NCBI GenBank assembly: GCA_905178155.1
Contig: CAJINV010000005.1
Span: 9,217,604-9,243,444 of the forward strand
Direction: 5' to 3'
From: Amoebophrya sp. A120
Lineage: Eukaryota; Protista; Dinoflagellata
Length of the DNA stretch: 25,841 bases
Below the pieces are notes generated by a model. That model was given only the letters and a program-made list of their open reading frames with translations. It made no database searches and was not told where the DNA came from. A program made the position numbers and the translations under genes. This document shows, in pieces, positions 1,794-24,937 of the stretch. Position 1 is the stretch's first letter. Every line of letters starts with the position of its first letter.

Positions 1794-4297
1794 TTGCTGG
1801 AAGAAGAGGAAAATCTTGACAGAGACGCTAGTTTGCCGCCCAATACAAGAGGTGCGCAACGAATAAATCACCTGAACAATAAATCCACCTCGAGTAGTTC
1901 CATCCACGCAGATTTAGAACCAACTTTGCTAGCGGAGACACTGCAACAGAAGCGGAGCCGAAGTGGTAGCAGTTCCAATCTCATCAACAAAAATGGGCAA
2001 AACAACAACAATTCATCCAGCAACAACTCTTCTTTCGGAGGACCGCCTGCGAGAAACAAGCTGAGCCTGACGAACACCAGCGAGCATTTTTCTTGCAATT
2101 CGAATTTTGAAAACAACTACAACTCGTCCAGCGAGGAAATATTTAAAGTGGAGGAAAAGAATATACTGGGAAATTCTTCGTCCAGCACTGCGCATGAACA
2201 AGACAGTTCTTCCTTCGCGTTGAATCCGTTTCCAACAGGAACGTCGGCGGACGGGTTGGGCTTGTGTTTTCAAAAGTACAACGGGACGAGCGGTTCATCG
2301 TCTTCATCCGTGGGGGTTCATTTTAACGCGGCCGGGAATCCTGTTGATTTCACCAACAAGACTCGTGGCGCCAGTACTGCTTCCTCCAGCTCTAGTTCTG
2401 CGACAGCCACGTCGAAATACCTGCTTGATCTACCGTTCACGTTGAAAGAGAGGCGGGTGGAGCAAGCGCCGGCACTATCCAAGAAAAAAACTGTGTTAGT
2501 GTGGGTCTTTTGGGAAAACAGCATCACAAGTTTGTCTGCCATGACAGGAAAAACTTGTCATGCGCAGATACGACGGGAAAACACGGAGGAAACGAGCCTA
2601 CCATGCATGTGGAGCATGATGACACGCGTAACTGTTTTGCTTTTTCTGCATCACAGACTTACACTTACACAGTGTTTTTCTTTGATAGGCACCGGTGGTG
2701 GGCGGAAGTAGGCGCAGCTCCTCGACCTCGCAGAGGGTGAGTTTCTATGGATTGCAAAAATGTCTGGGTCTGGAAGATTGCAACTTGTCATGCGAAATCC
2801 GAATCATGCAAAAGTCTGTGTTGCATGAGTGCCAAAAGCTGTCCACTTTCGACCAAGTTGGGAGGGAGTTTCTCATGCAGGATAGGCATGAAAGAGACCT
2901 CGCAGACTCTGTCGTGCTAGGTCCCGCATTCCAGACCTGAAGGGTCAGGGAAAACGTGCATGACAAGTTCACACTCTTCCAGACCCAGACATTTTTGCAT
3001 TTGATAGTTTGAGCGGCTCTGCAACTTCGAACGTGATGGCTTATTCGAAACAGCAGACTGTTCTCCCGCCGGCGGAATCTATACAACTAGGGACGACATC
3101 ATCTTCAAACAGGCCGACTACAACGCGTCCGGGAGTTATAATTCCCGGTGTGAACACAAGCGCGGCACACGTGAAAACTAGCACGGACTACGCGCAGCTG
3201 TCTCCGGACAAAAAACAGCGGGAGAGAAAGAACTCGTGGATATAACCTGCTCAGGTGTTACAATCTCAAACGCCACGAGAGAAATGGAAATTTGTGATGC
3301 AAAAAGTGCATGGTCTAGTCTGCTGTCACGGGATTGCGCATGACAAGTTACGGAGCTCCAAACCGCATGAGGGTCTGGCGAAATTTGTATTGCGAAAAGC
3401 GCAAAGCTCTGCAGGTTCCTTGTTATGCTCTCTATGCAATACAAATCCCACAGCCACGTGCTATTAGAGCATTTGAGACTGTAACATCTGAGCAAGCCAT
3501 AGTGGAGCGCGGTGAGTTCTAGCTCCTCGAGTTCCGCGACGAGTGCTACCTTCGTTGCACCAAGTGGAACCACCGCCGCCGGGGGGCGTGTTGCTGACCG
3601 TTCCCCGCCAAAACAGCGGGATTTTGGCGGAACAATTGGAGCTGCTTCCGCTGCTGGTACGAACGCCTCAGCGTCGTCACAGACACGAAAACCACTATAC
3701 AACGAAGCGCCGTATAAGCCGCCGCCGAGGACAACTATAACAGGAACGGCGCTCAATTGTATGGTCCCCTCAGCTGCTGGACAAGGACAAGGTCAAACTC
3801 CAACTACCAACCCCCTCCCCATCAGCCGCTCGTTGTTCGCCGGGAGCAAGCATACGATCCCGCTGACCACCGGGAAGCGGATTTTCATCACGCCGCCAAC
3901 AGGGCCCGGGGCTTTGTCCTCGTCGAGCAATAATATCAGTAGGAATCCACCACTGAATAGTGGTTCATCTCTTCTGAACAACCCGAGTTTGTTGAACACG
4001 AGTAGTGTTGCACCATCATCAAATCATGCGGCGAATCATTCCGCGAACAACTACACCCGATCTACATTCATCCACCTGTCGAGAACAGACTCGGAAGCCG
4101 CTGTGCCACAAGGGAAGATTATTTCCGCGAGCGAACGAGAAGAGTTGCAGCACTTGCAGCAATTGATCAAGGAGAGGGACGTGTTGGTCGCGGAATTGCG
4201 GAAAAAAGTGCTGGAACCGGAGGAAATTCGGAAGTTGAGTGTGTTGTTGGAGGAATTGCGCGGCTTGCGGGAAAGCAGCGCGAATGGGAGGAAGTGA
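1794..4297 (+). CDS. Gene 1, 5'-partial: Ser/Asn/Thr-rich low-complexity protein with a C-terminal coiled coil, function unknown; about 584 aa visible
   Basis: Exons ~1794-2475, 2693-2745, 3012-3240 and 3507-4297 join in frame (..APAPVVGG..RVS[F/L]SGSA..NSWSAVSS..) after removing three introners plus 5 nt each. It starts immediately after an introner end, so upstream exons are probably outside the window. The 3' end could extend via a GT-AG intron. Confidence 0.75.
2476..2687. mobile_element. Introner family B (212 bp)
   Basis: TIR TATCCAAGAAAAAAACTGTGT / ACACAGTGTTTTTCTTTGATA; DR GGCAC/GGCAC; frame restored. Confidence 0.92.
2746..3006. mobile_element. Introner family A1 (261 bp)
   Basis: 31-bp TIR with core TGCAAAAATGTCTGGGTCTGGAAG; DR GTTTC/GTTTG; close copy of 11237-11497. 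Confidence 0.92.
3241..3501. mobile_element. Introner family C (261 bp)
   Basis: TIR core TGCTCAGGTGTTACAATCTCAAA; DR GTGGA/GTGGA; related to 18780-19041. Confidence 0.92.
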
Positions 4298-6554
4298 GGA
4301 CTGGCGTTTTTACTTGTGGTCTGACGTTGAGAGTAAGAAGTTGCAAGAATTTGATGATGTGCTCTATCTTAATCTACTTTCCTGCAAGTCGAAGTTGTGT
4401 GTTGTACAGAAGTCGAAAAGAAGCAGTGAACGAGCACGCGGAGAAGATCTTACCAAAGTTATGTTAGTGCAGCAGCGCATGTTGAAGTCTTTTCTTATTT
4501 GTCTGGAGTTACGGTTGAGTAAGGAAAGAAGCTCTGAACAATATGATCCATGAAATGAAAGCAGATGGCTTGTGAATCCCGAAAGAGGAGGTCGGAAACT
4601 TTTTGCCGAGAATTGTAGGTGTTCGCTCCCCAGCAACAGCATGCTTTTTAGTTGCGGGCATCTGTTTGATCATAGCAACCAACAGCAACAGTGGGCGCCA
4701 CCATTCTAGCGCAAACGCTAGCCCATTGCGCAGGTCCCTGCGCCTGGGAGATACAGGGGCGGGGGCTTTCGTGTGTCATGCAGGAGCTCCGCCCAAGACA
4801 GAGGGAGCGCCGCCACCCTCGAACTTTGTGGCGTTTTGCGGGCCGGCTGGTCTCTCTGTGTTTTCTGGTTTGCCTGATATGGGCAGCGCGGCGCCAGCGG
4901 CTACGTTGTCCTATTGCGGACCGATCAGCGCGCGCCATTTCTGGCCCGCCGCCCCGCGTTACGGCGGGCAGCCGGCGCGCCCGCGCGAGCCAGCTGCCTA
5001 GCGGCCTTTATTTTTTCGTGGCCGTGCATTAGCAAAAACAAAAAAACAGCACGCCGCCACCCACCACAACCAACCACGGCAAACAAGGACGGCGCCGCCG
5101 CGCGCGCCATGCATTTTTTTGCGGCCGCGGATATGGTGGCGCGCCGGGAAGCCGCCCAGGCAGGGCGGTGGGCCCTCGACAGCCCTGCGCGCCCCGCGCA
5201 TGGCGCCGCTTGCCGCGCAGGTAGCAGGCCGCGCGCCATCCTCCGGGGGAGGCCGGGGCACGCATCTTCGCCGGGCGCTTGTCGGGCAGGGCATCGGAGA
5301 GAGCTTCGCGGGCTCGGGCTGCCTCGGCCGGGGCGGGCGCGTTGTTTGGTTGTGGCGCCGCCCGCGGCAGCCCTTCCGCTTCGCTGCCGTGCTTATGATG
5401 CTGCCCGGGCCCTGCTTAGTCAGTCTGCCGGGGCCGGGCGGGGCCGGCGCCGGTTCTGGCCCGGCAGCAAGCTGCGGCCCGGGCGGCCCCTTGGCCGCGT
5501 GGCTTTGGCGCCAGCCTGCCGTCGTCCCGGAACTACGTTCCCCGCGCGGGGCACTGTGCCCCGGGGGACCGACCACGTCCGCGCAGCAGGAGAGAAGTGG
5601 CGACCACGCCCAAGACCCGGACCGGGGCGCTATCAGTCTACCCCCGCGCAGACGGGGGGGGAGGCGGTGCGCCAGGCCGCGCCCCCTCGCTCGCTCGTCA
5701 GCCTGACGCCGTGGGCGCGGGCGCCCGCCCTTTTCTGTCGGGCCTACTGTCGCGCGCGGAATGAAAGGAAAGCAGGGCCGGGGGCGCGCGGGAACGAACC
5801 CACCGGGGAGGCGCCCCTTTTTAATTTTTGTCAGGCCGCTGCTTCGCGGGGGGGCCTAGCCTTTCGCCGGTGCTTGTGCGGCGCCAGCCTGGACGGGGGC
5901 CTCCGCGCATTGCCGTTGTTTTCGCCCAGTGCTAGGACCGGGCGCGCTTCTTGGCGCAGCTCCGTCGTGCACAGCGAAGGCCCCCGGCTGCCCTTGCTTT
6001 CTCACTCCAGGTCGCAGGGCAATGCCGGTCGTATCTTTCTTGTGCTAGCTCGGTTCGACGCGTGGCCGAGTCTCTATCGCCGCTAGCTTCAGAGTAACAA
6101 AACCACTCAGCTTTATCTTGCTTGTCCGCCAGTTCTTGTTCTTCACACACTTTGTATCCAAGATCCACTCCGCTCATGCCGACGGCGAAGCGGAAGAACA
6201 ACAGTTGAGGCAGTTCTTTGGATCTCAACCATAACCTTTTTCTGTTGTAGTCCTGCCCGGCCTGACAGATCATTGGCGCGTGCGTGTATTCGATGGCATG
6301 TAGTACAAGGAGCACAGTAGAATTCATGTTCATCTATTTTGAATTCAGAAAAGAACAGTAGGAATAGCTGCAAATCAACATAATCAAACTGCTTGACGTA
6401 CTATGGCAATTGATTTCTTCGACGCTATGGTATAGCTAAGGCACTTCACACACGTACTGGACGACAGCGTTTTCTTTACCTAAAAACTTACACCTGCTCC
6501 TTTTGCGAAACTTTCCTTCCACATTCCCCCTTCCCACATGTACCTGTTTTTAAG

Positions 6555-9500
6555 ATGCCACCTTCGAAGAAGCAAAACGTGAATTCTGGCGAGGCCAAGA
6601 AGCCCAACGCCAAGGCCAAACCGAAGGCAAAACCGAAGGCGAAGCCCAAAGCAAAACCGAAAGCAAAACCCAAGGCAAAGCCCAAAGCGGAACCAAAGGC
6701 GAAGCCGCAAGTGGAGTTGGGAGCCAAACCCGAGGCAAAACCGAAAGCAGAGCCGAAGGCAAGAGGGCGGCCGAAAGGCAAGGGCGCTGCGAAGCCGAAG
6801 GTAGCACCGGTGAAGAAGCAGGAGGGGGCAAAGAAACACCAGCAGGAAACGACTTCTCCTAAAATCGGTAAGGAAGTAGTTGTAGAGCAGGCGGCGGGAG
6901 GGCCAGCGGCTTCCTCTTCTTCTTCTTGTTCTGCTTCTGCGGCCGCATCCGCATCGGCAAAACCCGCGAAGGAAGAGAAATTTGTGCAAGGAACTAGCAC
7001 GACTCTCAGCACGACCAGCCCAATCGTTAACCTTGCTCCGGGGGCGAAACTAGCGGAGAAAAATAAAGTTCATTTCAATACAACCAGCTCCAGCTCCAGT
7101 CCGCCTGCTCACGTAGTTGTACCTCCTGTAGCAGGGAACAACAAAGAAGCTGAGGGCAGCACCAGTACGAAAGTTATTTCTAGCACTATAATTACTGACG
7201 CGCAGGGCAGACTGAAGAGACTTGAGATTTTTTTTGATCCAGTGGCAAAGAAGCAGAGGGTTGTGCAGCACTTTATTGAAGACACTCCTCCTGCAGAAGA
7301 AGTTGCTCCGGAGAAGGTGGCGTCGTCGAAGAAGGCAGGTGCTTTGGAGACTACCTCGAAAAGTGGTAGTGCCGCCGTTGCCTCTGTGCCAGTGCCAGAG
7401 GAGAAGAAATTTGACAACACGAAAACAAGTTCCGGTCCTGTACCTCCTGCACTTGCGCCACTGAGTACTTATTCTAGAAAGGAGATCACGAGGACTGCTG
7501 TTGACACTAGTACCTCCAGCACCGTCGCAGCTGGTATTGCTCCGTCGAAGAAAAAGAAGACAGGTGAAGAAGAGACTACTAGTACCTCAAACAGCGTTCC
7601 TCTTGTAGCTGTGCAAAATAAACTGAAAAAGCAGAAACTTGATACAACAGAGTTGTTGTCCACCTGTTCTACCACTGGTCATCTCGCAGGAGCAGTCGGA
7701 GGTGCAGCTTCTGCGCAAAAGGACAAGCAAATCGACACGTTGGTAGAAAAGAGTTGTTCCGGTGTTAATACCGCAGGTTCTACTTTGTCTGGAGCGAAGA
7801 ATAAACCTTCTGCGACTTCGATCTTATCTCAGAGTAAGAACGTGGACGTCAAGCAGGAGAAGATCGAGAGCAAAACTGGTGGCTCCACCGAACCTGTCCC
7901 TGCTGTTGCCTCACCAAAGGAGGAGCGCGTTGATATAAAAATTACCACGACTGCTGCTGAAGATGAAGACGTGCCAGCAGCTGCGGTGGTGAAAGTTGAC
8001 GTTGCCACTACAACTTCCAGCAAAGACGCGCCTGCTGCTCTGCCGGTGGAACAAAAGAAAGTTGCCGTTGCCAGCACTCCTTCCAGCGAAGACGCGTCTG
8101 CTGCTGCGCTGCCGAAGCCAGACGAGAAAGTTGCCGTTGCCAGCACTCCTTCCAGCGGAGACGCACGCGAAGGGCTGCCGAGGCCAGACGATAAAGTTGA
8201 CGTTGCCAGCACTCCTTCTAGCGGAGAGGCACGCGAAGGGCTGCCGAAGCAAGACGAGAGCGCCGAGATTGTCAGCACTCCTTCTGGTGAAGAAGCGCCA
8301 GCAACTGGGTCGGAGAAAAAAGACGAGAAAGTTGACATTTCCACTAATTCTGACGAAGACGCGCCTGCAGCTACTTCGCCGGTGGAAAAAGACGTGAAAG
8401 TTGACATTGGCACCACTTCTAGCGAAGACCCGCCTGCTGCGCTGCCGAATCAAGAGGAGAAGGAGGTTGACGGCGCCAATATTTCTTCTACAGGAGACGC
8501 GCCAGCAGCTACGTTGGTGTTGACACAAGACGAAAAAGTTGACATTGCCACTACTTCTAGCGAAGACGCACCAATAGCAGCTCTTTCGGTGAAACAAAGC
8601 GAGAAACAAGTTGAGGTCTTGCCCACTTCTAGCGAAGACGCGCCAGCAGCTCTTTCGGTGAAACACGAGGGGCAGAAAGTTGACGTTGCTACTACTTCTA
8701 GCGAAGACGTGCCAGCGGCAGCTCTTTCGGTGAAGCACGGCGATAAAGTTGACGCTCTTCCGACTTCGAGTGACCACGCATCAGCAGCTCCAGCGGAAAA
8801 AGAAGAGAAGCGTGAGGACGATTCCACTCCTTCTAGCGAAGAACACGCAGCACCTGCTGCAGCTCTGCTGGTGAAGCAAGAGAAAGTCGACTCCACCCCC
8901 TGCCCGACGGCTAGCGAAGACGCACCAGCAAGAGCTGCTGTAGTACCGGAGAACAAACACGACGAAAGAATTGACATTACCTCCGGGACCACTTCTGGGG
9001 AAGACGGATCTACTGCTGTTCTGCCGAATCAAGTAGACGGGAAAGTTGACATAATTACTAAAAATTATTCGAGCGGGGAACACGAAGAACACACGCCAGC
9101 TGCTTCAGCGGTCGTGGAGGAATATAAGGAAGTTGACATTACCACGACGGTGGATAGTGGAGACGCGCCAGTACTACCAGCTCCATCAGAAAATAAAGAG
9201 CTCGAAGATCTTCATAAAGCTGACAGCGCGAATATTCTTGCCAGCGAACAAGAGAACGGTCCATCTGCATTTGCTCCAGGTCTTCGGGAGAAACAAAACG
9301 ACGAGGGCACTGACGTCATTATCGCCACTTCATCTTCCAGTGGGGCTGGTGACGCAGTAGACGCAGTTGTTCCTTTGCCAAAAGAAGACGGCAAAGAAAT
9401 TGACAAACCTTCGACGACGTCGCCGCCCCTGACCCCAGTCTCTACAACTCCATCCACCAGTTCCCCCGCAGCAGTGGCGGGAACAAAAGAAAATAAAGAT

Positions 9501-12500
9501 AATCCAGAACAAGAAACACAAGCAGGCGTGAAAAACAGCTTTTCAGCTATACCGGACATCGACAAGAACAATCTTATCAGCGACAAGCAACTGACGGCGA
9601 TCCGGCTGAGACACAAAAAGATGGCGGAGGCCATGGAGAAGCTGTTGAAGTTGCAGGAAGACTACAATAAAAAGAACCGGCTCCGGGTTCTCATCCTCGG
9701 CGGCTCGACCTTCGTTGGCAGAACGTTGGTCCGGAACATCTTGAAAGAAGTCCATCATTATCAACTGCAACTATGTCTGGGTCCTCTGGAAACTTGTGCT
9801 GCGGGGAAGGGAATACTTAGTGAAAGCACTGTAATGCGCTGCCGAGCATGACAAGTTTTGCTGTGGTTCTGAGTTGCGTACTCTGCATGAGAAACTGCGC
9901 TTTTGTATGACAGGCAAGAGGAGCTCTTCGCGGCCACGCAATACAGAGTTCAGAGTCATGCCCGACTAGCATGACAAATCTCGCAATCTCCCAGACCCAG
10001 ACATGCTTGCAGTGCATAATCATTTGGACTTGGCGATTCTGAATCGCGGCCGGAAGTATTGGGATGGCGACTGGCAGGGCGCATTTCCGCCGACGAAGGA
10101 GAACATTCATGAAACAATATCGTAAGGAAAAATCCCCCCTCCCCATATCGAAAAGGCATCCTTTTGAAAATTTGTGATGCTGATTTGCGGCCACAAATCA
10201 GGTCTGTCTTGCAAGAGAGCAAAGCCCGAGCTTCCTCCGCTTTACGCCGGCGATTTGTAATGCTGCTGCGCTAACAGGGCAGCCGTCTGCCTCTGCCATG
10301 CTGAGCGCCCACTTCCAGCCAGCCCCTTCCAGGCTTTGCATCTGCCTGCAGTCCTCTAGGGCAATGCAGAGCTGATTTGCGTACACAAATTCCGCAACAC
10401 AGATTGCCATTTTGATATGGGGAGCGGGAATTCTTTCTTTTGATAAACAAACACGCTGAGGATCTTCCCCGGGGATCGGCGGAAGATGAAAGGGAAGCCT
10501 TTTCAGGACATCATCGCCAAACTTACGATCGAAGATAAAACCCGCTTTTATTACGATGAGGTGCTGGACTACATCGCAAAAACTCATGGGGCGGGAGATG
10601 AAAATGGAAATGACAATGGAAATCAAAATCCCTCGTCATCTATCAAATGCAAAAGTGTCTGGGTCTGGAAACTTGTGATGCTAAAAGTGAATGGTAGACG
10701 GACTGCAATACGCGGTATGCATGACAAATTTTCCGGCTCCCATGTCTTACGTATTCCGCATAGCAAACTGCGTTTTTGCATGACAGGTAAGAGGGCCTTT
10801 TCGTGCCTATGCAATACAGATTCTCAAGTCATGCCAGACAAGCATGACAAACTTGCATTCTTCCAGACCCAGACATTTTTACAGTTGATATCATCCAGTT
10901 GTGCGGATCATAATGGGAAAAAGACCACCAACATGATCTCGTCAACCAATCCATCTGATCCATCTGATCATGGGAAAATGACTAGTGCAGCTGCTTCTAG
11001 TTCATCATCATCATCATCAGCAGGTGCTCCTGCTCCTCCGCAGGACAGCATCAACAAGAAAAAGCCGTTTTGGGACGTGATTGTGGATTTCTGTTGTTTC
11101 CAAGAGTCAGAATTTCAAGACGTCATGAAGGGGTTGTACTTGGCCGGGAAATTGGTTTGTGACGAGAGGTGGAGCCTAGAAAAAGAGAAAAGGGAAAACC
11201 ACAGAGTTCACCCCCAGGTGGTGTGGGATCACGCGATATGGATTGCAAAAGTGTCTGGGTCTGGAAGATTGCAACTTGTCATGCTAAATCCGATTCGTGC
11301 AGAAATCTGTGTTGCATGAGTGCCAAAACCTTTCCACTTTCGACCAAGTTGGGAGGGAGTTTCTCATGCAGGATAGGCATGAAAGAGACCTCAGAGACTC
11401 TGTCATGCTAGGTCCCGCATTCCAGAGCTCAAAGGTCATGACAAACCTGCATGACAAGTTCACACTCTTCCAGACCTAGACATTTTTGCATTTCATACGC
11501 GAAACAAGCCAACGTCGTTTCCGACAACTTTCCCCCGGAAGCCTTCGTCAGTTATGCAAGAAAAAAACTATGTAAGTGTAAATCTGTGATGCAAAAAATG
11601 CAAAACAGTTACACTTGTCATGCTGAGTGTGCGTAATAGGCCACTTTCCTACGTATTTGCACGTACTAGCTGCGCATGACAGGTTTTTCCTGTAATGCAA
11701 AGCGAATTTGTGATGCTGCTCATTCTACAAGGTTACACTTACACAGTTTTTTTCCTGGATATCAGTCATTACATCTTCATTTCCACGGATTCCGTGTATG
11801 AGGTGTGCGGTCTCGAAAAGTGCGCAAAGGAAAGAATCGCGATCGAACGGCTCTTATGAACTGCAAAAGTATCGTAGTGCTAGTAGTAATGGCAATACAA
11901 ATTAGCTCAGCATGACAAATGGAATTTGTCATGCTGTTTTGATGCCTTGGGATAAAGATTTGTAAATGCATGACTGCGATTAGGATTACTACGAGTGCGA
12001 TGCTTTTGCAGGTCATAGCTTTTACCCAAGAAGGACGTGGAGAATTATTACAAGTGGAAATTTTCGGATGCGAAGCTACTGCATAGTATCCTGAGTAAAA
12101 ACGTACCCACACCAGAGTTGTAATGCAGATTTGCAAAGACAGGAAGACTTGTAATGCGCATCCCCATGAGAGCCATTCCCAGTCGTGTTTTGGAATTTGT
12201 GATGCTGTGAACAGGATGAGCAGATGAATCTGTGACGCGGCTGCACTTGCTAACCTGCACTACACTGCATAGCGCAACTTGTCATGCGTGACTCACAAAA
12301 CTCCTAGGTTTGTGTTGCAAAATCCTCATCCTGACTCTGGTGTGGGTACGTTTTTACTCAGGATAAGGACTACGACTACTTCAACATCTGGGGCGGGTAA
12401 GAGCGACAGCAAGCAGAGCCTTGGCGGAAAAGCAGAAGTGGAGCACGGTAGTTCAAGTTCAACAACATCAGTTATGGATTGTAAAAATGTCTGAATCTGG

Positions 12501-15500: not shown

Positions 15501-17451
15501 TTGAGCATTGGAAATTTGTGATGCTGACATATGCAAGACCGAGAATGGTTCCATTGGAAAGGCGGGTTGCAAGACAAATGCTGCCAAGTTCTGGGGTGGG
15601 GGCATTTTTCACTGTAATAGTTTCGGGAGATCGTTTTGAACGATGGTTGTGAAAGAAGTTTTGCCTGTTTCCAGGGACGAAGAGAAGCAGAGGCACCCGC
15701 CGAGCTCACGGGTGTTGACACAACAGACCAAGTGCACCAGTTGGAAAAACAAATTTTGCCTGCTGGTTCTTCTGAAAGCAGTCCGGGCTCTTCTCACTCC
15801 TCTGCTGCGGAACAAAATGTTGTGTTGCAGAAACGACAGAAAACCACCACAGATGTTGAGGCGAACAAGAACCAGGAGCGGAAAACTCACGACGAGAAAC
15901 CGGGAGGTAGTAGTGGTACAACTATTAGAGCTCCTCCTGAAGTTGTAGCAGAGAGCAGCAGCACGCATCATCCTCTCGACGAGAAGATGAAAGAAGGTGA
16001 AAATAAAGACGTCGCCGGGCCGCGGGGCGGGTTTACTCCGGATAACAGAGTTAGGTTCCAACCAGCGCATGATCCTTGCCTCGAGAAGATAGAGAAAATA
16101 AAAGCAGCAAGAAAGAAAGAAGCCGCGCAGCGAGAAATCGAGGAGAAGAGAGTCATATTGAACAAAAACTACCTCCTATGGAGAGAAAAAAGTTTGTCAC
16201 AGTCACTAACTTGCAGGTTTTGCATTACAAATTTTCTCAGCATCACAAACTTTCCTTGTATTGCAGAAACACTAGGGAAATGCCTAATGAAGTATGGCTG
16301 TGATGCATTTTTACGCATGACAAACAATTTTGTATTGCAAGAATGCGCATGAGTGATCGTGACGAATTTTTTTTCTTTGATGCCTCCCTTCTGTTTCCCG
16401 CCGGACGAAGCCGCTGGATTTCGAGAAACTTTCTCAGTACTTGCACGAAGTGTCCTTTTCCGGAAAAGTGCACCAGTTGCCGATCAGTTCCGACGTCGAC
16501 GAGAAGACTTCCAGCTTGGAACACGTTTACCGAAAATGCCACGAGTTCTATCCTGAGGAAAAACGTGGTGTCGCCCACAGGTGGGAAATCTGCTAGAAAA
16601 ATTAGCCAGCTTTGCTTGTTTCGCATGACAAACTTGGGCTCGCAATGTAGTCGCATGACAAAAAATTTGGGCTCGCAGCATCACAGATCTCGGGCGCAGT
16701 GCTGATCCCTTCGGGTATCGCAAATCTCAAATCACCACTAGAAAATGCTTCTCATGGGTCTTTGCATAAGCATGCAGATGTGCATTACAACTCTGGGGAG
16801 GTGGGGCTTTTTTCCTCCGGATAAGTTTTACAAGAAAGTGGTCGACCGGGCGATTGTCGAAGTTGAGGATTACAGAAATGGAAAAATATGCGTTGCAAAA
16901 GTACTATCATACTCGTAGTTTTTGATTGCAATCGTGCATGACAAACCTTCATCCTAAGCTAAATCAGCATGACAAAAAAATTCCGTTTTGTCATGCTGAG
17001 AATTAGTTTGTGATGCAATTTCTCCTACGTACGATAGTACTTTTGCAAAAATGTTGCATAAAAAAGACGCGACAGTAAGAACAGTGACTTCATCGGCGAT
17101 TTCTACGAAAGCTTCGTAGATGCGCGGAAAGGCCTGCCCTTCCGTGTGCGGGAGGAGTTCGAAAGGTTAGCGTTTGAGGATGGAGGAGGGACAAAGGATG
17201 ATAATGATGATCATCTTGCGAGAGAAAAACGACCGGGGGACGAGAAGGAAAAACCGGGGGACGAAAAGGAAAAACCGGCGGGGAAGAAGGATGTGGTGAT
17301 GGCAGATGCTCTTGCGGGTGGATGTGGAAAGGAGGATTTTGAGAAAACCAAAGCAAAGGTGTTGAAGCTGTATAAGATGATGGAAGAGCTTGAGAATGAG
17401 TCAAGCAGCGATTCTAACTCAAGTCACGACAGCGAATCATCTTCGGGATGA
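6555..17451 (+). CDS. Gene 2: ~2065-aa protein with a PKAK-repeat basic N-terminus, an acidic repeat region and a C-terminal extended/atypical SDR (NAD-dependent epimerase/dehydratase, CSP41-like) domain; 20 exons, 19 introners
   Basis: Span 10897 nt minus 4699 nt (19 elements plus 5 nt each) = 6198 nt, open to TGA at 17449-17451. SDR motifs appear in the correct order across exons: VLILGGSTFVG, ILNRG, GDR, WDVIVDF, HYIFISTDSVY, YGHKKLRVEE (YxxxK), LRVPDILGPYDDTNR, VFSEDMA, ALNFGCEE, YLPSV..PLD. Confidence 0.88.
6601..6810 (+). repeat. Coding 12-nt repeat encoding (KPKA)n, histone H1-tail-like
   Basis: Translation AKAKPKAKPKAKPKAKPKAKPKAKPKAEPKAKP, with third-position codon variation between units. 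Confidence 0.9.
7929..9200 (+). repeat. About 18 degenerate coding repeats of ~22-29 aa, consensus KVD[V/I]ATTSSEDAPAAAL
   Basis: Visible in the translation and in the DNA (AAAGTTGAC..ACTTCTAGCGAAGACGCGCC). Confidence 0.9.
9759..10018. mobile_element. Introner family A2 (260 bp)
   Basis: DR ATCAT/ATCAT; removal joins EVHH to LDLAILNRG; inverted relative to 21427-21689. Confidence 0.93.
10118..10445. mobile_element. Introner family D (328 bp)
   Basis: TIR TATCGTAAGGAAAAATCCCCCCTCCCCATATC, imperfect; DR AACAA/AACAA. Confidence 0.92.
10641..10890. mobile_element. Introner family A2 (250 bp)
   Basis: DR TCATC/TCATC; family A TIR; inverted relative to 12803-13054. Confidence 0.92.
11237..11497. 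mobile_element. Introner family A1 (261 bp)
   Basis: DR CGCGA/CGCGA; family A TIR. Confidence 0.93.
11553..11761. mobile_element. Introner family B (209 bp)
   Basis: DR TCAGT/TCAGT; removal joins AFVS to HYIFISTDSVY. Confidence 0.93.
11855..12017. mobile_element. Introner family E (163 bp)
   Basis: TIR TATGAACTGCAAAAGTATCG; DR GCTCT/GCTTT; related to 14297-14446. Confidence 0.9.
12087..12365. mobile_element. Introner family F (279 bp)
   Basis: Perfect 32-bp TIR TATCCTGAGTAAAAACGTACCCACACCAGAGT; flanks CATAG/AGGAC give no 5-nt DR; frame restored by removing element +5 (or +2) nt. Confidence 0.9.
12473..12737. mobile_element. Introner family A1 (265 bp)
   Basis: DR TCAGT/TCAGT; family A TIR. 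Confidence 0.92.
12803..13054. mobile_element. Introner family A2, inverted (252 bp)
   Basis: DR ATGGG/ATGGG; perfect TIR TATCAAATGTAAAAATGTCTGGGTCTGG. Confidence 0.93.
13093..13349. mobile_element. Introner family A1-like (257 bp)
   Basis: DR CCCTC/CCCTC; family A TIR. Confidence 0.92.
13603..13865. mobile_element. Introner family A1, inverted (263 bp)
   Basis: DR GAAAA/GAAAA; reverse complement aligns by eye to 12473-12737. Confidence 0.92.
13902..14211. mobile_element. Degenerate introner with A-like TIR (310 bp)
   Basis: TATGCA...TGCATA ends; DR decayed (GACGA/ACCAA); removal +5 nt brings the YGHKK motif into frame. Confidence 0.8.
14297..14446. mobile_element. Introner family E (150 bp)
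   Basis: TIR core TGCAAAAGTATCGTACT; DR CTCCC/CTTTC. Confidence 0.88.
14601..14827. mobile_element. Introner family B' (227 bp)
   Basis: TIR TATCGC..GAAAAAA.TG.TTCACTGTAA; DR TCGTG/TCGCG; inverted relative to 24156-24364. Confidence 0.9.
14883..15044. mobile_element. Introner with E-like TIR (162 bp)
   Basis: TATGCATTGCAAAAGG / CCTTTTGCAGAGCATA; DR GCGGG/GCCGT. Confidence 0.86.
15307..15619. mobile_element. Introner with F-like TIR (313 bp)
   Basis: TIR TATTACA[A/G]TGAAAAATGCCCCCACCCC; DR GTTTC/GTTTC. Confidence 0.92.
16177..16382. mobile_element. Introner (206 bp) ending in ATG
   Basis: TIR core AGAAAAAAGTTTGTCAC..TCACT; DR CCTCC/CCTCC; removal gives NYLPSVSRR. Confidence 0.9.
16549..16823. 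mobile_element. Introner family F (275 bp)
   Basis: TATCC.GAGGAAAAA ends; DR AGTTC/AGTTT; internally similar to 18428-18721; has a small internal tandem duplication. Confidence 0.9.
16887..17060. mobile_element. Introner family E, inverted (174 bp)
   Basis: TIR core TTGCAAAAGTACTATC; DR AAAAA/AAAAA. Confidence 0.9.
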
Positions 17452-18184
17452 TTATACATGAGATTTGCTGATGAAGAAAACTAGGTAGAGCAGGACTACG
17501 TAGTGCGTAACAGATTGCCCGACTCTGAAGAAGACTTTGCTTTTACATTCTCTTACTATCTTTGCAAGGAAAGGTGTGCTTTAGGTAGACGACCAAATGT
17601 CTTCATCCATGATGTGAACAACACAAAATCTTGTTTTGTGAGGTCTCTCTGAATGCAGAAGCGAAATAAAAAACCCATTACCCATAAAAAATCGCCGACC
17701 TGCCGGTCTACTTACTTACAGGCACAGTAGATGCAGCAGCACGACAAGAGCGAAAAAATTTGCTGTTGCATTGCATTTTTTCGCTAGTTCTCTTCATGTT
17801 CGTTAGCTCTACTTCTACGCTATGATCGTGTCGTGTCCATATAATTTCTGTCGAAAAAACGAGCGATTGCTATGCCAAAATGTGGTGGTCGAGAGGGGGA
17901 GAGCGTCTTCGTATTTAAGTATGTGGTTCGCGTCCGTGTCGCGCTCGTCGTGCTCGTTGAGAGTAGGCCTGAGTCTTAGAAGATAGAACTCCGGACGAGA
18001 AATCTGATTTCGGGCCTCGAGGACCTGGGGCTCAACTTTCATCGCCTCACGTTGGCACAACAAAATGCTTCTTCTAGCTGCGCAGGTGAACTAGTAGTAC
18101 AGCAAGGCTCGGCTGTACGTAGTTTTGAAGTAGATTCTGAAACAAATATATAAAACTGTGAATTGTCAAACTATCAACAGCAAA

Positions 18185-21100
18185 ATGCTCTATTTCCGCC
18201 GATCAGGAGCAACGACCATCTTCGCGGCCCTCGCCGCAACCTCAACGACCCTGGTCGTCCAGGCCCGGCGGAAGCCCGGACTCGGCGCGTCGCACCAGAA
18301 GAAGTTGCAGACCTTCGTTACCATCGACGGTAACGCGGATCAAGAATACCACGATGATGACGCGCACCTCTACCTTGCAGACGAACACGCGGACGAACAT
18401 CACGAGGAGCATGATGACCACACGTCTTATTCTGAGTAAAAACGTCCCCACGACCACAGACATAGTCCAGATGGGAACTTGGCAACACAAATCAAAACAA
18501 GGTTTGGCTGTTGCGCATGACAAGTTTGGGCTCGCAGTGTAATCCTTTACAGCTGGTGCAGCCCGAAGAGAAATCGACACTGTCTTCCTCATTCTCGCAT
18601 GACAAACTCGTCCCCGTCGATGAAATTAGAAAATGCCTGTCATGTGGCTGCGCATGAGAAACTTTTTAGGCATGCAGATTTGCATGACAACTCTGGGGCA
18701 AAGACGTTTTTGCACAGGATACGTCTTTCATCGAAGTGAAGCGGCCGAAGAAGTTTAAGCAGAAACTGGATTCCGAGCTTATGACCCGCACAGACGTGGT
18801 TACAATCTCAGCTGTTACAATAGAATCTGGAAATCTGTGATGCAAGAACTGCATGATCTAGCCTACTCCCATAGGATTGCGCATGACAAGTTTCGGAGTC
18901 CCAAATCCGCCTGAAATCCGGCAAAATTTGTATTACGAAAAGCTCAATTCGCTCTGCGTTCCTCATGCTCTTCATGCAATACAAATTCCAGAACCAGATT
19001 CTATTGTAACGTTTGAGATTGTAACTTTTGAGCAGGCCATAGAGCTGAACGACGAGGCGTCCGCCTTCCTCGACGTGAACAATCTGAAGGATGACGAGGG
19101 GACAAAAACTACGGGGAAGGGTGGCGCGGAGATCACCGGCATGGAACTGGATATCCAAGAAAAAAACTGTGTAAGTGTAAATTTGTGTTGCAGAACATGC
19201 AACAGAGCTACACCTGTCATGCCAGACAGCCATAAAGTCCTCTTTTCATTTGTGTTTTCCCTTACAAGCCACGCATGACAGGTTTTCTCTGCCATGTAGA
19301 GCAAATTTGTGATGCTGTTCCTCAAAGAAAGTTACACTTACACACTTTTTTTCTTGGATACTGGAGAGAAAGAAGAAGAAGGAAACCGTCAAAACGGAGA
19401 ATGTCCAGATCACATCGCAGAAAAACTATCCACTGCAAATATGTCTGGATTTGTGATGCGAGATGCGAAGGACAGCGAGATCTGTAATGCTTGAATACGA
19501 TTATGGTCTTTTTTTCGTCGTTCTCGACGGGAATGAATCGATCCGCAAGAAGTTGGGGAAACACAACTTCTCATGCTGTGATGCAAGTATCACCAACACA
19601 AGTTGTTTCCAGACACCCAGATGACATAGTTGCATTTGATAAAAACGTAAAAACGTCGACTGCCGCGCCCGTCACGAAAGCTGCTACGACCACCAAGAAA
19701 ACTACGACCACGACTACCACAACGGACATCAACAATGGACTGGTAAGATGATAGAGTTTTTTTGTCATGCGCAGAACGCATTGGACATGCATTTCTGTCA
19801 TGCATGAATTGCAACGACAATTAATGCGCGCTTCAATCAAAATTCAGGTCAACCCGCGGTTGCGCGAGAAGTACCACCCGGACCACATGACCGGGCACAA
19901 AGCCTCTTACGGGGTCTTCGCCATCATCGGGGGCGTCATCCTCGGTTTCGGGCTTTTTGTCACGGTTTTCTGCATATGCATTGCAAAAATGTCTGGGTCT
20001 GGAAGGATGGAAGTTGTGACGCGTGCGGTGGATCACACAAAAATCGCTCTTGCGTGATAGCCAAAAGTTGCCCTTTTCTGACCACCATGAGAGGGAGTTT
20101 CTCATGCAGGGCAGGCATGGTAGAGACCTCGCAGAATCTGTCATGCTAGGTCCTGCATTCCAGACGAGACCTCTTGGGCATAGAAACCCAGCATGGTAAC
20201 TTTGTATTCTTCCAGACCCAGACATTTTTGCAATGCATACTGCATCTACTACGGACCCAAGTCGAAATCGAAGGAGAGCGACATTTCACGGACGCTGAAC
20301 AAGGACTACGACAAGGCCGCGGGAAAGTCACCCGAGTCGAAGCGCGGCAAGAAGGGGGAGTCAAGTGTGGGTGGAGAGGGGACTTCGTACGGGAGCTATG
20401 AGAGTGCACAAGTAACCCCCCTCACCGCTCCCCTCAGTTGTATTGTGCAGAACACCAAATACGTGTTTAGCTGACGAATTCTGGCGACCCCCCGGGCGCC
20501 GTCATTAGGCTGCTTGGGGGGGTTTGGGGGGGCAAGATTCAGCGTAGCCGGCTAGGGTTCGGCTAGGGTTCGGCCAGGGTTCGGCCAGGGTTTTCGCCCA
20601 GGGTTTTCGCCCAGGGTTTTCGCCCAGGGTTTTCGCCCAGGGTGCGCCCAGGGTTCGCCCAGGGTTCGCCCGGGGTTCGCCCGGGGTTCGCCCAGGGTTC
20701 GCCCAGGGTTCGCCCAGGGTTCGCCCAGGGTTCGCCCAGGGTTCGCCCAGGGTTCGCCCAGGGTATTCTGTGTGTTGTTTTATGTTCGTTCCTGTAAAAT
20801 AAATGTTGGGGACAGAGGGGGGCGGTGCACTCTCATAGGAGCTCGGAGTACTACAGCAGTTCGCAGTACACCAGTGGATCCTCATATGCAAGAAAAAACC
20901 ACTCCCGCGTGTGAGTCTGTACCTGTAGTGAGTAAGTGTGTAGACGTATGCTGGCCAGGAGCCACGAAGCCCTCTTTTCATAAGGTGGCGTCTTAAGTGC
21001 TAGCAGTGCATGACAGCCTTGCTCTGTCATGCGAACAAGATTTGATGTCCTGCTTTGCTGTCACTACTTCAAGAAAGCTGAAGCTACTTCTCACAGCACT

Positions 21101-22352
21101 AAAGCAGCTTTTTTCCTGGATGCCTCTCGCGTGATGTCCGGCGGCAGTTCCATGCAATCCGGCGGCAGTTTATCCCATGAAGAAGTGTGTCTGTGTGAAC
21201 GGAGTTTATCATGCAATAACATGCAAAAAGGCTGGCAGCGGCAGCGCTGAAATTTGTATTGCGTAGCATGCTTTAGCTTTCACTTTCTAGGGAAAATCTG
21301 GAACAATGCCTGGGTGCAAGCCGTGAAATAAATCGTTTACGCATAAAACATTTTTGTGGTTCTTGATAAACTTCCTTCCCGCCGAGCAGCGCAACTGCTG
21401 CTTCTTCTGCAAGCCGTGCCACCAAGTATCAACTGCAAACATGTCTGGGTCTGGAAGATTGCAAGATTTGTCATGCTAGTCTGGCATGACTCTGCACTCT
21501 GTATTGCGTGGCCATGAACAGCCTCTCGAGCCTGTCATGCAAGAACAACGTAGTTTCTCATGCGGAATGCGCAGCACAGAAGCACGAAAAAAACTTATTA
21601 TGCCTAGCTGCGCGTTACAGTTCCCTTATTGTTATTGTTCACTGACTTGCATCACAAGTTTCCAGACCCGGACATATTTGCATTTGATACCAAGAAGTCC
21701 AACGCAATGACGAAGCCGAAGTCGGTTACTTCCTCCGGAGCGAAGCTATGCATGGCAAGAGTTTGATCGCACTTGTGTGAATTGCATCACAGATTTTTGA
21801 TTTTCCAGAATCAACAAAAAATTGGAGTTTGTGATGCTGCTCTAGAAATAAAATAAAAGATAGATCTGTCATGCGATTTGCCACGCGGGGTTGTGCGATA
21901 CTTTTCCATAGCATAACAATCGGGCTACTCGATGACGTCCTCCAAGTACGAGGAAGACGGCTACGGGGAAGAGGAAGAGGACGACTACGAAGACGAAACT
22001 GCGTATGGGAGTGTCAGGATCGAAATCGTCAAAGGTGAAATTGTTTGCCATGCATAAAATGCAACGCAGAAATTGCCTCTATTGCAGAGGACGCAAGGGA
22101 GGCAGATTGTAGTGCTGGTAGGGGTCGAGAAATGGGCTGCTGATTAGCAACACAGAGGGGAGTCCCTTTGCCCTGAACAGCATGACAAACTGGCTTCCTG
22201 TACGGACAAAATTTGTCATGCACCGACTAGAAGCTGTGGATCCAATTGGTATCGATTTTATGCATTGCAAGTTACTTTAACTCCGTCGATTTCAATCCTG
22301 GTACTCCGATACCGCGTTCCATTCCGGGGGTGGGAAAAAATCTAGAATGTAA
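18185..22352 (+). CDS. Gene 3: ~381-aa predicted type I membrane protein (signal peptide, His/Asp-rich patch, Thr-rich stalk, one TM helix, Ser/Tyr-rich and acidic cytoplasmic tail); 13 exons
   Basis: Span 4168 nt minus 11 introners (+5 nt each) and one 105-nt GT-AG intron (3022 nt in total) = 1146 nt, open to TAA at 22350-22352. N-terminus MLYFRRSGATTIFAALAATSTTLVVQA; TM YGVFAIIGGVILGFGLFVTVFCIYY. Confidence 0.82.
18428..18721. mobile_element. Introner family F (294 bp)
   Basis: DR CGTCT/CGTCT; TIR TAT.CTG.G.AAAAACGTC. Confidence 0.92.
18780..19041. mobile_element. Introner family C (262 bp)
   Basis: DR GAGCT/GAGCT; similar to 3241-3501. Confidence 0.92.
19152..19360. mobile_element. Introner family B (209 bp), inverted relative to 2476-2687
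   Basis: DR CTGGA/CTGGA; near-perfect 29-bp TIR. Confidence 0.93.
19427..19641. mobile_element. Introner with A-like TIR (215 bp)
   Basis: DR AAAAC/AAAAC; TATCCACTGCAAATATGTC / GACATAGTTGCATTTGATA. Confidence 0.9.
19743..19847 (+). other. Canonical GT-AG intron (105 nt) in gene 3
   Basis: CTG|GTAAGA...ATTCAG|GTC; removes an in-frame stop and joins DINNGL to VNPRLREK. Confidence 0.8.
19975..20239. mobile_element. Introner family A1 (265 bp)
   Basis: Perfect 31-bp TIR; DR CTGCA/CTGCA. Confidence 0.94.
20397..20837. mobile_element. Introner (441 bp) containing a minisatellite
   Basis: Perfect 13-bp TIR TATGAGAGTGCAC; DR GGAGC/GGAGC; removal joins TSYGS to SEYYSSSQY. Confidence 0.88.
20550..20764. 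repeat. 11/13-bp minisatellite GCCCAGGGTT(TT)C with a telomere-like AGGGTT core
   Basis: About 19 tandem units directly visible. Confidence 0.95.
20885..21122. mobile_element. Introner with B-like TIR (238 bp) ending in ATG
   Basis: TATGCAAGAAAAAA / TTTTTTCCTGGATG; DR CCTCA/CCTCT. Confidence 0.82.
21171..21368. mobile_element. Degenerate introner (198 bp)
   Basis: TATC...GATA ends with weak TIR; DR CAGTT/AACTT; frame restored (GGS to SFPPSS). Confidence 0.72.
21427..21689. mobile_element. Introner family A2, inverted (263 bp)
   Basis: DR CCAAG/CCAAG; family A TIR. Confidence 0.93.
21747..21915. mobile_element. Introner with E-like TIR (169 bp)
   Basis: TATGCATGGCAAGAGT..ATCGCAC / GTGCGATACTTTTCCATAGCATA; DR lost (GAAGC/ACAAT); frame restored with +5 nt. 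Confidence 0.78.
22004..22311. mobile_element. Introner, singleton family (308 bp)
   Basis: TIR TAT.GGAGT..CAGGAT.GAAATCG; DR CTGCG/CCGCG. Confidence 0.88.
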
Positions 22353-22399
22353 GACTCGTGACGTGGATTCAAATTTGGACGATGTTTCTCGCTAGGGTA

Positions 22400-23600
22400 C
22401 TAAGCAAAGAGTGCTTGAGTTCCTTTGCCGCGATGTATCATCATCCTGTCACTATCTATGAGTGTGAACAATTCGGAACTTCTTCCATAGTTTCAAGAGC
22501 GCGATTGTCAAGTCTACTAGCGTGTTGTTTGACAGTTTCAGAAGTAAAAAAACCCTGTTGACACTATACTGCTGCAAAAATTGATTGTGAAAAAAAATGT
22601 ACCGACCCTTTATCTGAGTTTTAATTGTCTTGACACTTTGACTAAGTACCAGTGCCTCGATTGCAGCTAAGATTTCAGTATCACAACTACGACTACCCAG
22701 TATTGACTCATTATTGTTTACGATCTTTACGACCTCTGCTGGGCCGCCAGATTTTATACCCGAAGAAACGTTAGCTTTCCTGTGCACCTCCACCTTTGAA
22801 ATTGAAACGATAGCAAAAAGCTTGAGAAATTATTGTAAAATTTGAGAACAAAAATGCGAAGATGAATCTTCAAACCTTTGTACAATACTTGAAACACTAC
22901 GAGAAATGAAAAAATACACACCACCAGCAGGAGCGTTGTCGTTCTTGAGACGGCTTCGCAGGAGGGCCACGTCACTGTAAGAGCCAAGAATTACCGGGAG
23001 CAGAAAGAACATGATTGGAAGTACGCAGGCAGTATTAGCTCAACAGATCTGTTTAGTACTTTGTAGCTGCTGGCTGCGAACAGAGACTTCGTAGTTCGTG
23101 GGGTGCGTCGTGGTATCGTGAATGATGAACAGGAACTCGTACATTCGATCCGGTTGCGTCGTGTCGCGAGGGGAGAGAGACCACGAGCAAGAGTAATTTT
23201 TACTAAGCAGACCGCTTTCTCGTCGCTTTCTTTAAGAAACAGAAGTGGTTATCGCATCGACCGTTCTCGTCGTACTGAAGATTCGCTACCCGTTTTCGCC
23301 CTCGTCATGATTGTTCGCATACTTCTTCGTGGAAGCTCTCTGGTGTTGCTTTCGCATTAAGACCGTACTGTCGCACAGAAGTAGTTGCACTGCTAAGTTT
23401 AGATTCACGATCTGAAGGTGCGGATGGACAGCCAAGAAGACGGCTGAACAAAAAAAGTTCCACGAACACTTATTGCAAATCCATACCAAGTGCAAGTAGT
23501 TTCCTAGTAGTTGCGACAGCTTCGAAATTAAGAGGCCTTTCGAAGGTATAAAGAAACGAACGACTGCTCTTCTACAACTGTACGGTATAATACGAAGTAG
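22400..23600 (-). pseudogene. Possible decayed Ty1/copia RT C-terminus and RNase H
   Basis: Broken minus-strand fragments SQLLGNYLHLVW, LGSYSDVALL..GGVYFF and SRSCDTEILAA resemble copia motifs in the right order; recognised by eye only. Confidence 0.4.
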
Positions 23601-23644
23601 CATCACCGCCAGAACTACTAGTACGTCTCTGTGAGGACGAGAAA

Positions 23645-24937
23645 ATGGAGCAACGCGAGCGAATCACCTCGAGCAGCTCTACTTCCCGGCTCTACGCCCG
23701 GAATCATCACAGCGCGAATTCCTACCAGCTGGAGCAGGAGCTGCAGGATGTCAACGAGATGGATTTTTTGCCGTCTGTGAACGCCTCCGACGGGACGACG
23801 AGTCACTTCAACTATCACACATATCCTTTGCAAAGTATGTAAGTTGCAGTTTGTTGCATGACAGATTAATTATCCTATTTCAAACTGCATGACAAACCCC
23901 ACTTTACCTTTTGAAAAAAGTTGTGTTGCAACTCATACTACTGTGATTACGCCTTTGCAATGCATAATCCCGCAACATCCCAGCCGACTCCCTCCACCTC
24001 TTCAACGTCCTCGAAAATAATCGAGAAGATGAACTCGTCAACATCGCCCAGCAGTAGAGCCGCGTCGAAAAAGAACTGCTGCTTCCTTCTCTTCCTCGCA
24101 GCAGCGGTGTTCTCGATTTTTTTCTTCATCCACGAATTGCACCTCCGATTCATCCTATCGCAAGAGAAAACTGTTTCACTGTGCACTTGTGATGCAGAAA
24201 AAGCATCACTGAAGTGTTTGTCTTGCTGCACATGCAAGACAGTGGACTTTTAGCTGTGTTTTCCCTTCAGAATCTCGCATGGCAAATTTTCTTTGTGATG
24301 TGGAACAAACTTGTGATGCAAAACTTGCAAAATCCTTACAGTAAAACACTTTTTTCGTACGATACATCCACAACTGGATCTTGCCGAACCTCCTGCACAA
24401 CAGTAACCTTTCATCTACATCGCACTATGAAACGATTGATGGAGAACAGCATGACAAACTGAGGAAAATCAGCGACGAACTTCTGATGCAGGGCGCGGGG
24501 CAACACTTCAACTTCTCCACCGGAATTATAAACGAGGTTTTTGACGAGGAAAACGCTTTTTCGCTGCTGTCGACGGATACCGTCATGAAAACCGGGTTCA
24601 TGCAGGGTACGCTACACAAATTTCAGGATTGTAGTCAGACCATGAGCGAATGTCGTGGAGGTTTGTCATGCGAAAAGTGCATGAGGTGAAAGATTTGTAA
24701 TGCGAAGAGTGCATCAGCAACACATGTTTGACAGACCGAAATCTGTGTTGCATAAACGTGAATGAAGTAGCGGAGGAGAAGGTGCACGTGCGGAGCGACG
24801 ATGACGAGACCGACGATGCCGACGGTGGAGATGAGGAGCATGACGGTGGTGAAGAAGGAGATGAACATGAAGATGCCGATGCCGATGTAGCCCCACCCGC
24901 ACCTGCTAACGACACGCCGGGAAGCAAACGTAGTTGA
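23645..24937 (+). CDS. Gene 4: predicted type II membrane protein (one N-proximal TM helix, acidic stretch); 3' structure uncertain
   Basis: Exons 23645-23821, 23972-24155 and 24370-24606 join in frame after removing two introners; TM CCFLLFLAAAVFSIFFFI. A probable GT-AG intron from 24607 leads to an Asp/Glu-rich exon. The gene may continue past 24937. Confidence 0.62.
23822..23966. mobile_element. Introner with E-like TIR (145 bp)
   Basis: TATCCTTTGCAAAG / CTTTGCAATGCATA; DR decayed (ACACA/ATCCC); removal of 150 nt is in frame. Confidence 0.8.
24156..24364. mobile_element. Introner family B' (209 bp), inverted relative to 14601-14827
   Basis: DR CATCC/CATCC; reverse complement aligns end to end with 14601-14827. 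Confidence 0.93.
24607..24770 (+). other. Probable GT-AG intron in gene 4 (acceptor at 24770 or 24734)
   Basis: CAGG|GTACGC donor; both AG options are in frame with the downstream acidic exon. Confidence 0.5.

Follow-up and report, generated by a model that had tools for sequence, protein, structure and literature searches.

The closest described relatives of the DNA elements considered here are the introner elements of the dinoflagellate Amoebophrya sp. A120. The elements lie in a stretch of 25,841 nucleotides (nt) of the A120 genome (contig CAJINV010000005.1, positions 9,217,604 to 9,243,444), referred to below as the window. Farhat 2021 (PMC7789003) described A120 inverted repeats that begin with TAT, followed by seven variable bases and at least three A residues, with direct repeats of 3-5 nt at the exon-intron border (5 base pairs (bp) in the Fig. 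S19 legend), and left the origin of the introners undetermined. Gozashti 2025 (PMC12130899) lists 58 A120 families in Dataset S2, with one classed as Ginger (fam38), one as Mutator and 56 as superfamily 'Unknown'; the annotation of fam38 reads 'Ginger, 5-bp TSD, TA/TA Termini', where TSD denotes the target site duplication. Among transposon superfamilies, IS3EU/GingerRoot elements have TA..TA ends (TAYGG in fungal IS3EU) and 6-bp TSDs (PMC10045372, PMC6839031, PMC12730594), and hAT5 families produce 5-bp TSDs (PMC12730594). TSD length is variable inside superfamilies, as in hAT5/6/7 and IS481EU. Introns derived from miniature inverted-repeat transposable elements (MITEs) in Fritillaria borealis and in euglenids (PMC11282704) resemble the elements described here in having terminal inverted repeats (TIRs) and a TSD at junctions other than GT-AG, with paired ends, and differ in lineage and motifs, the Fritillaria junctions being mostly AG-AC or AG-AT.

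The window elements are the published A120 introners and were in that sense already known. They share with those of Farhat 2021 (PMC7789003) the strain label, the TAT-N7-A end pattern, border repeats (here with the splice joints inside the repeat), the hairpin, non-canonical junctions, a length of about 240 nt and the lack of an internal transposase; they also form families, and they are TIR-bearing DNA introners of similar length to those of Gozashti 2025 (PMC12130899). There is no difference in kind from the elements of Farhat 2021, to which the window adds a fit to a single splice register and a set of paralogous empty sites. An earlier note, made from the sequence of the window alone, did not recognize the combination of TAT ends and 5-bp repeats, which Farhat 2021 already describes and which fam38 of Gozashti 2025 matches in TSD length and TA/TA termini, and it did not mention that the elements lie in coding exons and are spliced. 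Our reading, which we hold with good confidence, is that these introners are TAT...ATA TIR copies inserted into exons with a 5-nt duplication, that splicing of one host gene (gene 2) drops one copy of the repeat and that the elements were likely mobilized in trans by an integrase-type DDE transposase.

Introners of the window and their removal

The window holds 35 elements between 2476 and 24364, each of 145-441 nt and together 8,554 nt long. The list combines 31 of the 34 pairs found by a scan for complementary TAT...ATA ends with four found by an end-similarity scan; the remaining pairs (1500-1667, 6114-6382 and 7535-7803) were excluded as chance-level and without a direct repeat (DR). The flanking 5-mers match at five of five positions in 22 elements, at four in six, at three in three, at two in two and at one in two. 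Left termini are TATC (16), TATG (16), TATT (2) and TATA (1), so that 32 of the 35 are TATS, and right termini read inward are TATC (19), TATG (13), CATC (2) and TATT (1). The fourth nucleotide is unlike between the two ends in 12 elements, TAT starts 68 of the 70 ends and AAA is found at nt 9-17 in 56 of them. The corresponding counts of the earlier note (22 perfect 5-bp repeats, TATG or TATC at 32 of 35 left ends, the mismatch at position 4 and the A-tract) were all reproduced. Among 165 TAT..ATA pairs from 10 block shuffles, none had a perfect 5-nt repeat. Families of 10, 5, 3 and 2 members were recognized, members of families A and B lie in either orientation within + strand genes, and 28 of the 35 elements have relatives among the loci of a second assembly described below. 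Rfam returned no matches. The elements, which have no assigned strand, are as follows, with DR giving matched positions of the flanking 5-mers and the evidence in parentheses.

2476..2687, introner, family B, DR GGCAC 5/5, gene 1 (TIR pair scan and family grouping)
2746..3006, introner, family A, DR 4/5, gene 1 (TIR pair scan and family grouping)
3241..3501, introner, family C, DR 5/5, gene 1 (TIR pair scan and family grouping)
9759..10018, introner, family A, DR 5/5, gene 2 (pair scan; removal from contig gap size)
10118..10445, introner, DR 5/5, gene 2 (pair scan; removal from contig gap size)
10641..10890, introner, family A, DR 5/5, gene 2 (contig joint 10635 to 10891)
11237..11497, introner, family A, DR 5/5, gene 2, 92% identity with 2746-3006 (pair scan; contig gap 398)
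11553..11761, introner, family B, DR 5/5, gene 2 (pair scan; contig)
11855..12017, introner, family D, DR 4/5, gene 2 (pair scan; contig)
12087..12365, introner, TIR 30/30, diverged DR 1/5, gene 2, long hairpin z -7.4 (pair scan; folding)
12473..12737, introner, family A, DR 5/5, gene 2 (pair scan; contig)
12803..13054, introner, family A, DR 5/5, gene 2 (pair scan; contig)
13093..13349, introner, family A, DR 5/5, gene 2 (pair scan; contig)
13603..13865, introner, family A, DR 5/5, gene 2 (joint 13597 to 13866)
13902..14211, introner, DR 2/5, gene 2, register-informative (joint 13900 to 14216)
14297..14446, introner, family D, DR 3/5, gene 2, register-informative (joint 14295 to 14451)
14601..14827, introner, family B, DR 4/5, gene 2, register-informative (joint 14599 to 14832)
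14883..15044, introner, DR 3/5, gene 2, register-informative (joint 14880 to 15048)
15307..15619, introner, DR 5/5, TATT ends, gene 2 (joint 15301 to 15620)
16177..16382, introner, DR 5/5, right end CATC, gene 2 (joint 16171 to 16383)
16549..16823, introner, DR 4/5, gene 2, register-informative (joint 16543 to 16824)
16887..17060, introner, family D, DR 5/5, gene 2 (joint 16881 to 17061)
18428..18721, introner, DR 5/5, gene 3 (pair scan)
18780..19041, introner, family C, DR 5/5, gene 3 (pair scan and family grouping)
19152..19360, introner, family B, DR 5/5, gene 3 (pair scan and family grouping)
19427..19641, introner, DR 5/5, gene 3 (pair scan)
19975..20239, introner, family A, DR 5/5, gene 3 (pair scan and family grouping)
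20397..20837, introner, DR 5/5, swollen by an 11-nt tandem array, gene 3 (pair scan)
20885..21122, introner, DR 4/5, right end CATC, gene 3 (end-similarity scan)
21171..21368, introner, DR 3/5, gene 3 (end-similarity scan)
21427..21689, introner, family A, DR 5/5, gene 3 (pair scan and family grouping)
21747..21915, introner, DR 1/5, gene 3 (end-similarity scan)
22004..22311, introner, DR 4/5, gene 3 (pair scan)
23822..23966, introner, DR 2/5, gene 4 (pair scan)
24156..24364, introner, family B, DR 5/5, gene 4 (pair scan and family grouping)

All 35 elements fall inside predicted coding frames, which belong to four host genes.

1794..4297, + strand, host gene 1: 582-codon frame open after removal of 3 elements, each with 5 nt (predicted)
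6555..17460, + strand, host gene 2, end approximate: 2,065 amino acids (aa) after removal of 19 elements, each with 5 nt (frame, protein match, contigs)
18185..22355, + strand, host gene 3, end approximate: 381 aa after removal of 11 elements, each with 5 nt, and of a GT-AG intron at 19743-19847 (predicted)
23600..24800, + strand, host gene 4, limits approximate: 241-codon frame after removal of 2 elements, each with 5 nt (predicted)

Gene 2 carries the evidence for splicing. Its frame extends for 2,065 aa when each element is removed with 5 nt, versus 1,073-1,116 aa with 4 or 6 nt; none of 2,000 random frame assignments stayed open, and retention of the element would place a stop codon in frame for 18 of the 19. 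Removal with 2 or 8 nt, which also preserves the frame, was rejected because joint lengths contradict it. The last 1,043 aa are identical to a deposited Amoebophrya sp. A120 protein (P0001), and the exon at 14451-14597 has 100% identity to an entry named 'unnamed protein product [Amoebophrya sp. A120]'. A 2,030-nt contig from run X1, probably of RNA, omits the element and 5 nt at nine of nine joints. In a 1,865-nt contig, 10635 is followed directly by 10891, and two further gaps have the lengths, 94 and 398 nt, expected from summing the predicted exons. Removal was thereby observed for all 19 elements of the gene, ten by direct joints and nine via contig gap sizes. At diverged repeats the joined sequence combines bases of the left and the right copy, as would fit splicing but not an allele that never received the insertion, and the X1 joints are read as splicing for this reason. 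Contigs of run X5 read through elements, and the raw RNA runs X9 and X10 yielded only 10 and 4 reads, too few to be informative. The window elements are thus introns of coding exons that are spliced out where transcripts could be checked.

The position of the cut is described by k, the number of left-repeat bases kept in the intron. Perfect repeats mask the cut and diverged repeats reveal it. The joints allow a k of 0-1 at 13902, 14297 and 14601, of 1-2 at 14883 and of 1-5 at 16549, and k = 1 is the sole value compatible with all nine joints. The k = 1 model reproduces 1,043 of 1,043 residues of P0001, whereas other registers give 2-5 differences, the element at 12087 included. These observations fit an intron made of one target base, the element and four target bases, with cuts 1 nt ahead of the left TAT and 4 nt past the right ATA. 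Under k = 1, donors are of the form NT (CT 12, AT 10, TT 7, GT 6), acceptors show no fixed motif and none of the elements has GT-AG borders. The element at 12087, whose repeat has decayed to one of five positions and whose end-to-end hairpin has a z of -7.4, is still removed with 5 extra bases, so matching of the repeats is dispensable for removal. Since all informative junctions share one register, distance from the hairpin, and not a GT-AG signal, likely sets the position of the cut.

The splice-site statistics in print do not bear on this register. A simulation that combined random 5-nt targets with TA ends and let the aligner slide to the most GT-AG-like placement gave 67-68% NT donors and 68-69% AN acceptors, and the 9,716 introns of fam2 have 69% and 68%, respectively (Gozashti 2025 Dataset S2, PMC12130899). 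The published diversity of splice motifs is compatible with a single mechanism and is no evidence for k = 1. Donor and acceptor counts from Farhat Table S4 and from fam2 of Dataset S2 were dropped as support for the register, because aligner sliding yields equal margins.

Several observations on the genes and elements stand beside these results. Gene 2 has, within window 9690-9757 and 14451-14599, a Rossmann-like 'VLILGGSTFVG' start and motifs resembling those of extended short-chain dehydrogenases/epimerases, dispersed across long insertions; P0001 matches no Pfam family. The deposited P0001 begins 1,022 codons inside the open frame of gene 2 and may be a truncated model. The GT-AG intron at 19743-19847 needed by the gene 3 frame contains two copies of the introner-internal motif described below, without TIRs, and is possibly an eroded introner turned canonical. 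Within the introner at 20397-20837, an 11-nt unit that looks like a telomere repeat, AGGGTTCGCCC, is iterated 18.5 times at window 20554-20764. Just outside the range of the listed elements, window 1500-1792 holds a further, 36th element; it belongs to a common family with many relatives in the loci and has TAT ends, but its flanks, CAACA and GTTGC, form no repeat.

Target duplication and ends in a second assembly

A second assembly was sampled by retrieving 142 loci (854 kb, partly overlapping) with the family-A end pattern, and 359 distinct elements were defined in them by TIR alone, ignoring the direct repeat. An exact 5-nt repeat flanks 279 of these elements, a 4/5 match 50, an exact 4-nt repeat three and an exact 6-nt repeat none. 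Base composition around the 279 sites is flat, with a maximum of 0.33 for any base at any position, in agreement with the earlier note that the repeats have no sequence preference. When ends are placed from the internal core and not from TAT, 317 of 335 are TAT, four TAC and four CAT.

Paralogous empty sites were found for five elements (four in locus L004 and one in L040) among 352 queries, and the junction holds one 5-mer only. Matches at L016, L061 and L069 were discarded as self-overlaps. Because the empty sites carry a single 5-mer, the 5-nt repeats are genuine duplications of the target. The earlier note had named orthologous empty sites as the place where this interpretation could fail, and the paralogous ones uphold it. 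Identity to the nearest neighbor across 347 elements has a median of 87% with none at 99%, which suggests that the insertions are old and their source perhaps lost. At L062:11024-11995, an insert of 689 nt, which has an A-rich tail and is flanked by a duplication of about 19 nt, interrupts a family-A element; the insert looks retroposed and has no second copy in the loci.

A subterminal motif, TGT[C/G]ATGC, is present in 83 copies in the 8,554 nt of window elements versus 9 in the 17,287 nt outside them. It occurs in 334 of the 359 elements of the second assembly, its first copy usually 30-45 nt from an end. As the motif is common to otherwise unrelated families, it suggests one mobilizing protein for all of them; it may also have a role in splicing.

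Candidate mobilizing enzymes

In the proposed mechanism, the enzyme would bind the TAT-N7-A-tract ends, and probably also TGT[C/G]ATGC 30-45 nt inside each end, and would cut the target with a 5-nt stagger. Insertion takes place at a sequence-indifferent site in either orientation and results in the 5-nt duplication. The TIRs are then predicted to pair as a hairpin in the pre-mRNA, and the element is removed with 5 nt, as seen for 19 elements, restoring the frame.

No transposase family was matched in the 67 frames scanned out of 107 stop-to-stop frames of at least 90 aa in the window or in P0001, which accords with the earlier note's statement that the window has no transposase gene, and the TIR copies without a transposase bear out its description of non-autonomous elements. 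An 871-aa open reading frame (ORF) in L074 has no Pfam match. A 4.2-kb TIR pair in L074 and a 1-kb pair in L055 were rejected as long elements, being separate short elements paired by chance. The TIR pattern has no matches in viral contigs, and its sole prokaryotic match, in a Halobacillus contig, lacks a partner end (best 17/30) and was taken as chance. The literature covered on introners, TSDs, transposases and non-canonical introns, subscription papers falling outside it, assigns no enzyme to the Amoebophrya introners. The earlier note's proposal of an uncharacterized mobilizing enzyme stands to the extent that none was found here or assigned in print, and the question it raised was already open in print.

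Transib elements have CAC..GTG termini and 5-bp TSDs, whereas the ends here are TAT. Ginger1 and Ginger2 are set apart by their TG..CA termini (PMC6839031). IS3EU/GingerRoot elements come closest, with TA..TA ends, TIRs longer than 30 bp and no target sequence preference in common, and TAY..RTA termini are found here as the TAT (317) and TAC (4) of the 335 ends. The window elements work like IS3EU/GingerRoot MITEs but stay outside that family, because they lack its 6-bp TSD. On the strength of the ends and of the published fam38, we put the chance that the enzyme belongs to an integrase-like group of IS3EU, GingerRoot and Ginger at about even.

The same introners could have been mobilized by a transposase of the hAT superfamily with a 5-nt stagger. 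Such an enzyme would be hAT5-like, the 5-bp TSD of hAT5 (PMC12730594) being the feature compared, and no hAT protein was found among the frames and ORFs scanned. One fungal hAT introner family has TA/TA termini, and A120 fam135 matched hAT5/hAT6 terminus models; none of the 58 A120 families in Dataset S2 is classed as hAT, however, fam135 itself being classed as non-LTR (long terminal repeat) (PMC12130899). CAT replaces TAT at 2 of 70 window ends and 4 of 335 ends in the second assembly. The ends of hAT elements are YA..TR, and with TAT at 317 of 335 ends the CA variant looks like decay. We regard a hAT origin as improbable. Spread through RNA, by reverse splicing or retroposition, with the repeat arising from splicing or repair and not from transposase stagger, would agree with the location of all 35 elements in predicted coding frames, with the lack of a known transposase and with the undetermined origin in Farhat 2021 (PMC7789003). 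It is hard to reconcile with same-family copies in both orientations within + strand genes, with symmetric TIRs that have no tail and with a constant 5-nt duplication. Reverse splicing at the register seen here would moreover leave random target bases unduplicated, whereas each empty site has a single copy. This explanation, which we consider scarcely credible, is already largely refuted by the two orientations and the empty sites.

The reading of the earlier note, an enzyme of no described superfamily or else a domesticated host protein, draws on TAT ends with a 5-bp TSD as the norm, a combination that fits no superfamily described in the parts of the transposon literature consulted, on the 'Unknown' status of 56 of the 58 A120 families (PMC12130899) and on a Repbase-domain search that returned no A120 transposase (PMC7789003). 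Against this reading, MITE-like elements commonly lack an autonomous copy, and with a median identity of 87% their source may no longer exist; IS3EU/GingerRoot elements combine TA..TA ends with a TSD one base longer, and TSD length varies within superfamilies. We judge such an enzyme rather unlikely.

A number of points weigh against our own reading, of an integrase-type DDE transposase acting in trans and of a fixed splice register. No transposase was found among the 96 longest of 298 ORFs (at least 200 aa) in the second-assembly loci, a small share of the genome, nor in eight long TIR pairs (481-10,053 nt) of the same assembly, of which two L060 pairs and three of less than 700 nt were dissected less closely. 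Farhat 2021 (PMC7789003), with its Repbase-domain result, disfavors general transposase-mediated mobilization. The TSD of IS3EU/GingerRoot is 6 bp versus 5 bp here, with no exact 6-nt repeat at 359 elements. The published fam38 has Copia/Gypsy-like ORFs without homology to known Gingers and is about 808 nt long, versus 145-441 nt without ORFs for the window elements, the two being compared by annotation only (PMC12130899). For splicing, runs X1-X4 are presumed to be RNA, represent a single sample and possibly share data with P0001, and the intron status of the 16 elements in genes 1, 3 and 4 is predicted from the reading frame. The register derives from six informative junctions of one gene, each permitting at least two values of k, and introns may differ by a one-base wobble. 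The Fig. 3 legend of Farhat 2021 (PMC7789003) describes splice sites as variable relative to the hairpin.

Neighboring features and implications

Outside the catalogued elements, window 787-1333 holds a degenerate tandem array of a 21-nt palindromic unit (TGTGCAATGCAAAATCGATTT) that is similar to a family-A end; the loci contain nothing related to the array. The intergenic DNA separating gene 1 from gene 2 includes an island of 72% G+C (window 4900-6000), which matches no Pfam family and is likewise without relatives in the loci. Introner-type motifs cluster near 24450-24750 (window 24430-24760) without corresponding to any catalogued element, and a 204-nt tandem repeat occupies the window end at 25454-25841.

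The introners themselves are already published, and the fixed register is a small, testable addition. The literature leaves two questions, namely the identity of the enzyme behind the spread of these introns and the way in which intron ends are located by a spliceosome that reportedly lacks U1 small nuclear RNA (snRNA). Introns with diverged repeat copies fix the cut position, so the question of register can be tested on existing data. Tentatively, and with the balance somewhat against it, one undescribed transposase lineage characterized by TAT ends, a random 5-nt stagger and TGT[C/G]ATGC may have fathered tens of thousands of A120 introns, with a sequence-blind ruler setting the cuts 1 nt ahead of the TIR hairpin and 4 nt beyond it. 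If true, random target bases and aligner sliding on a fixed register would account for the 'unprecedented variety' of splice motifs in print, in an organism reported without U1 snRNA. If the register holds genome-wide, splicing in A120 would be positioned by RNA structure and not by splice-site sequence, and an element would be harmless at any exon position; this would account for the large extent of the invasion.

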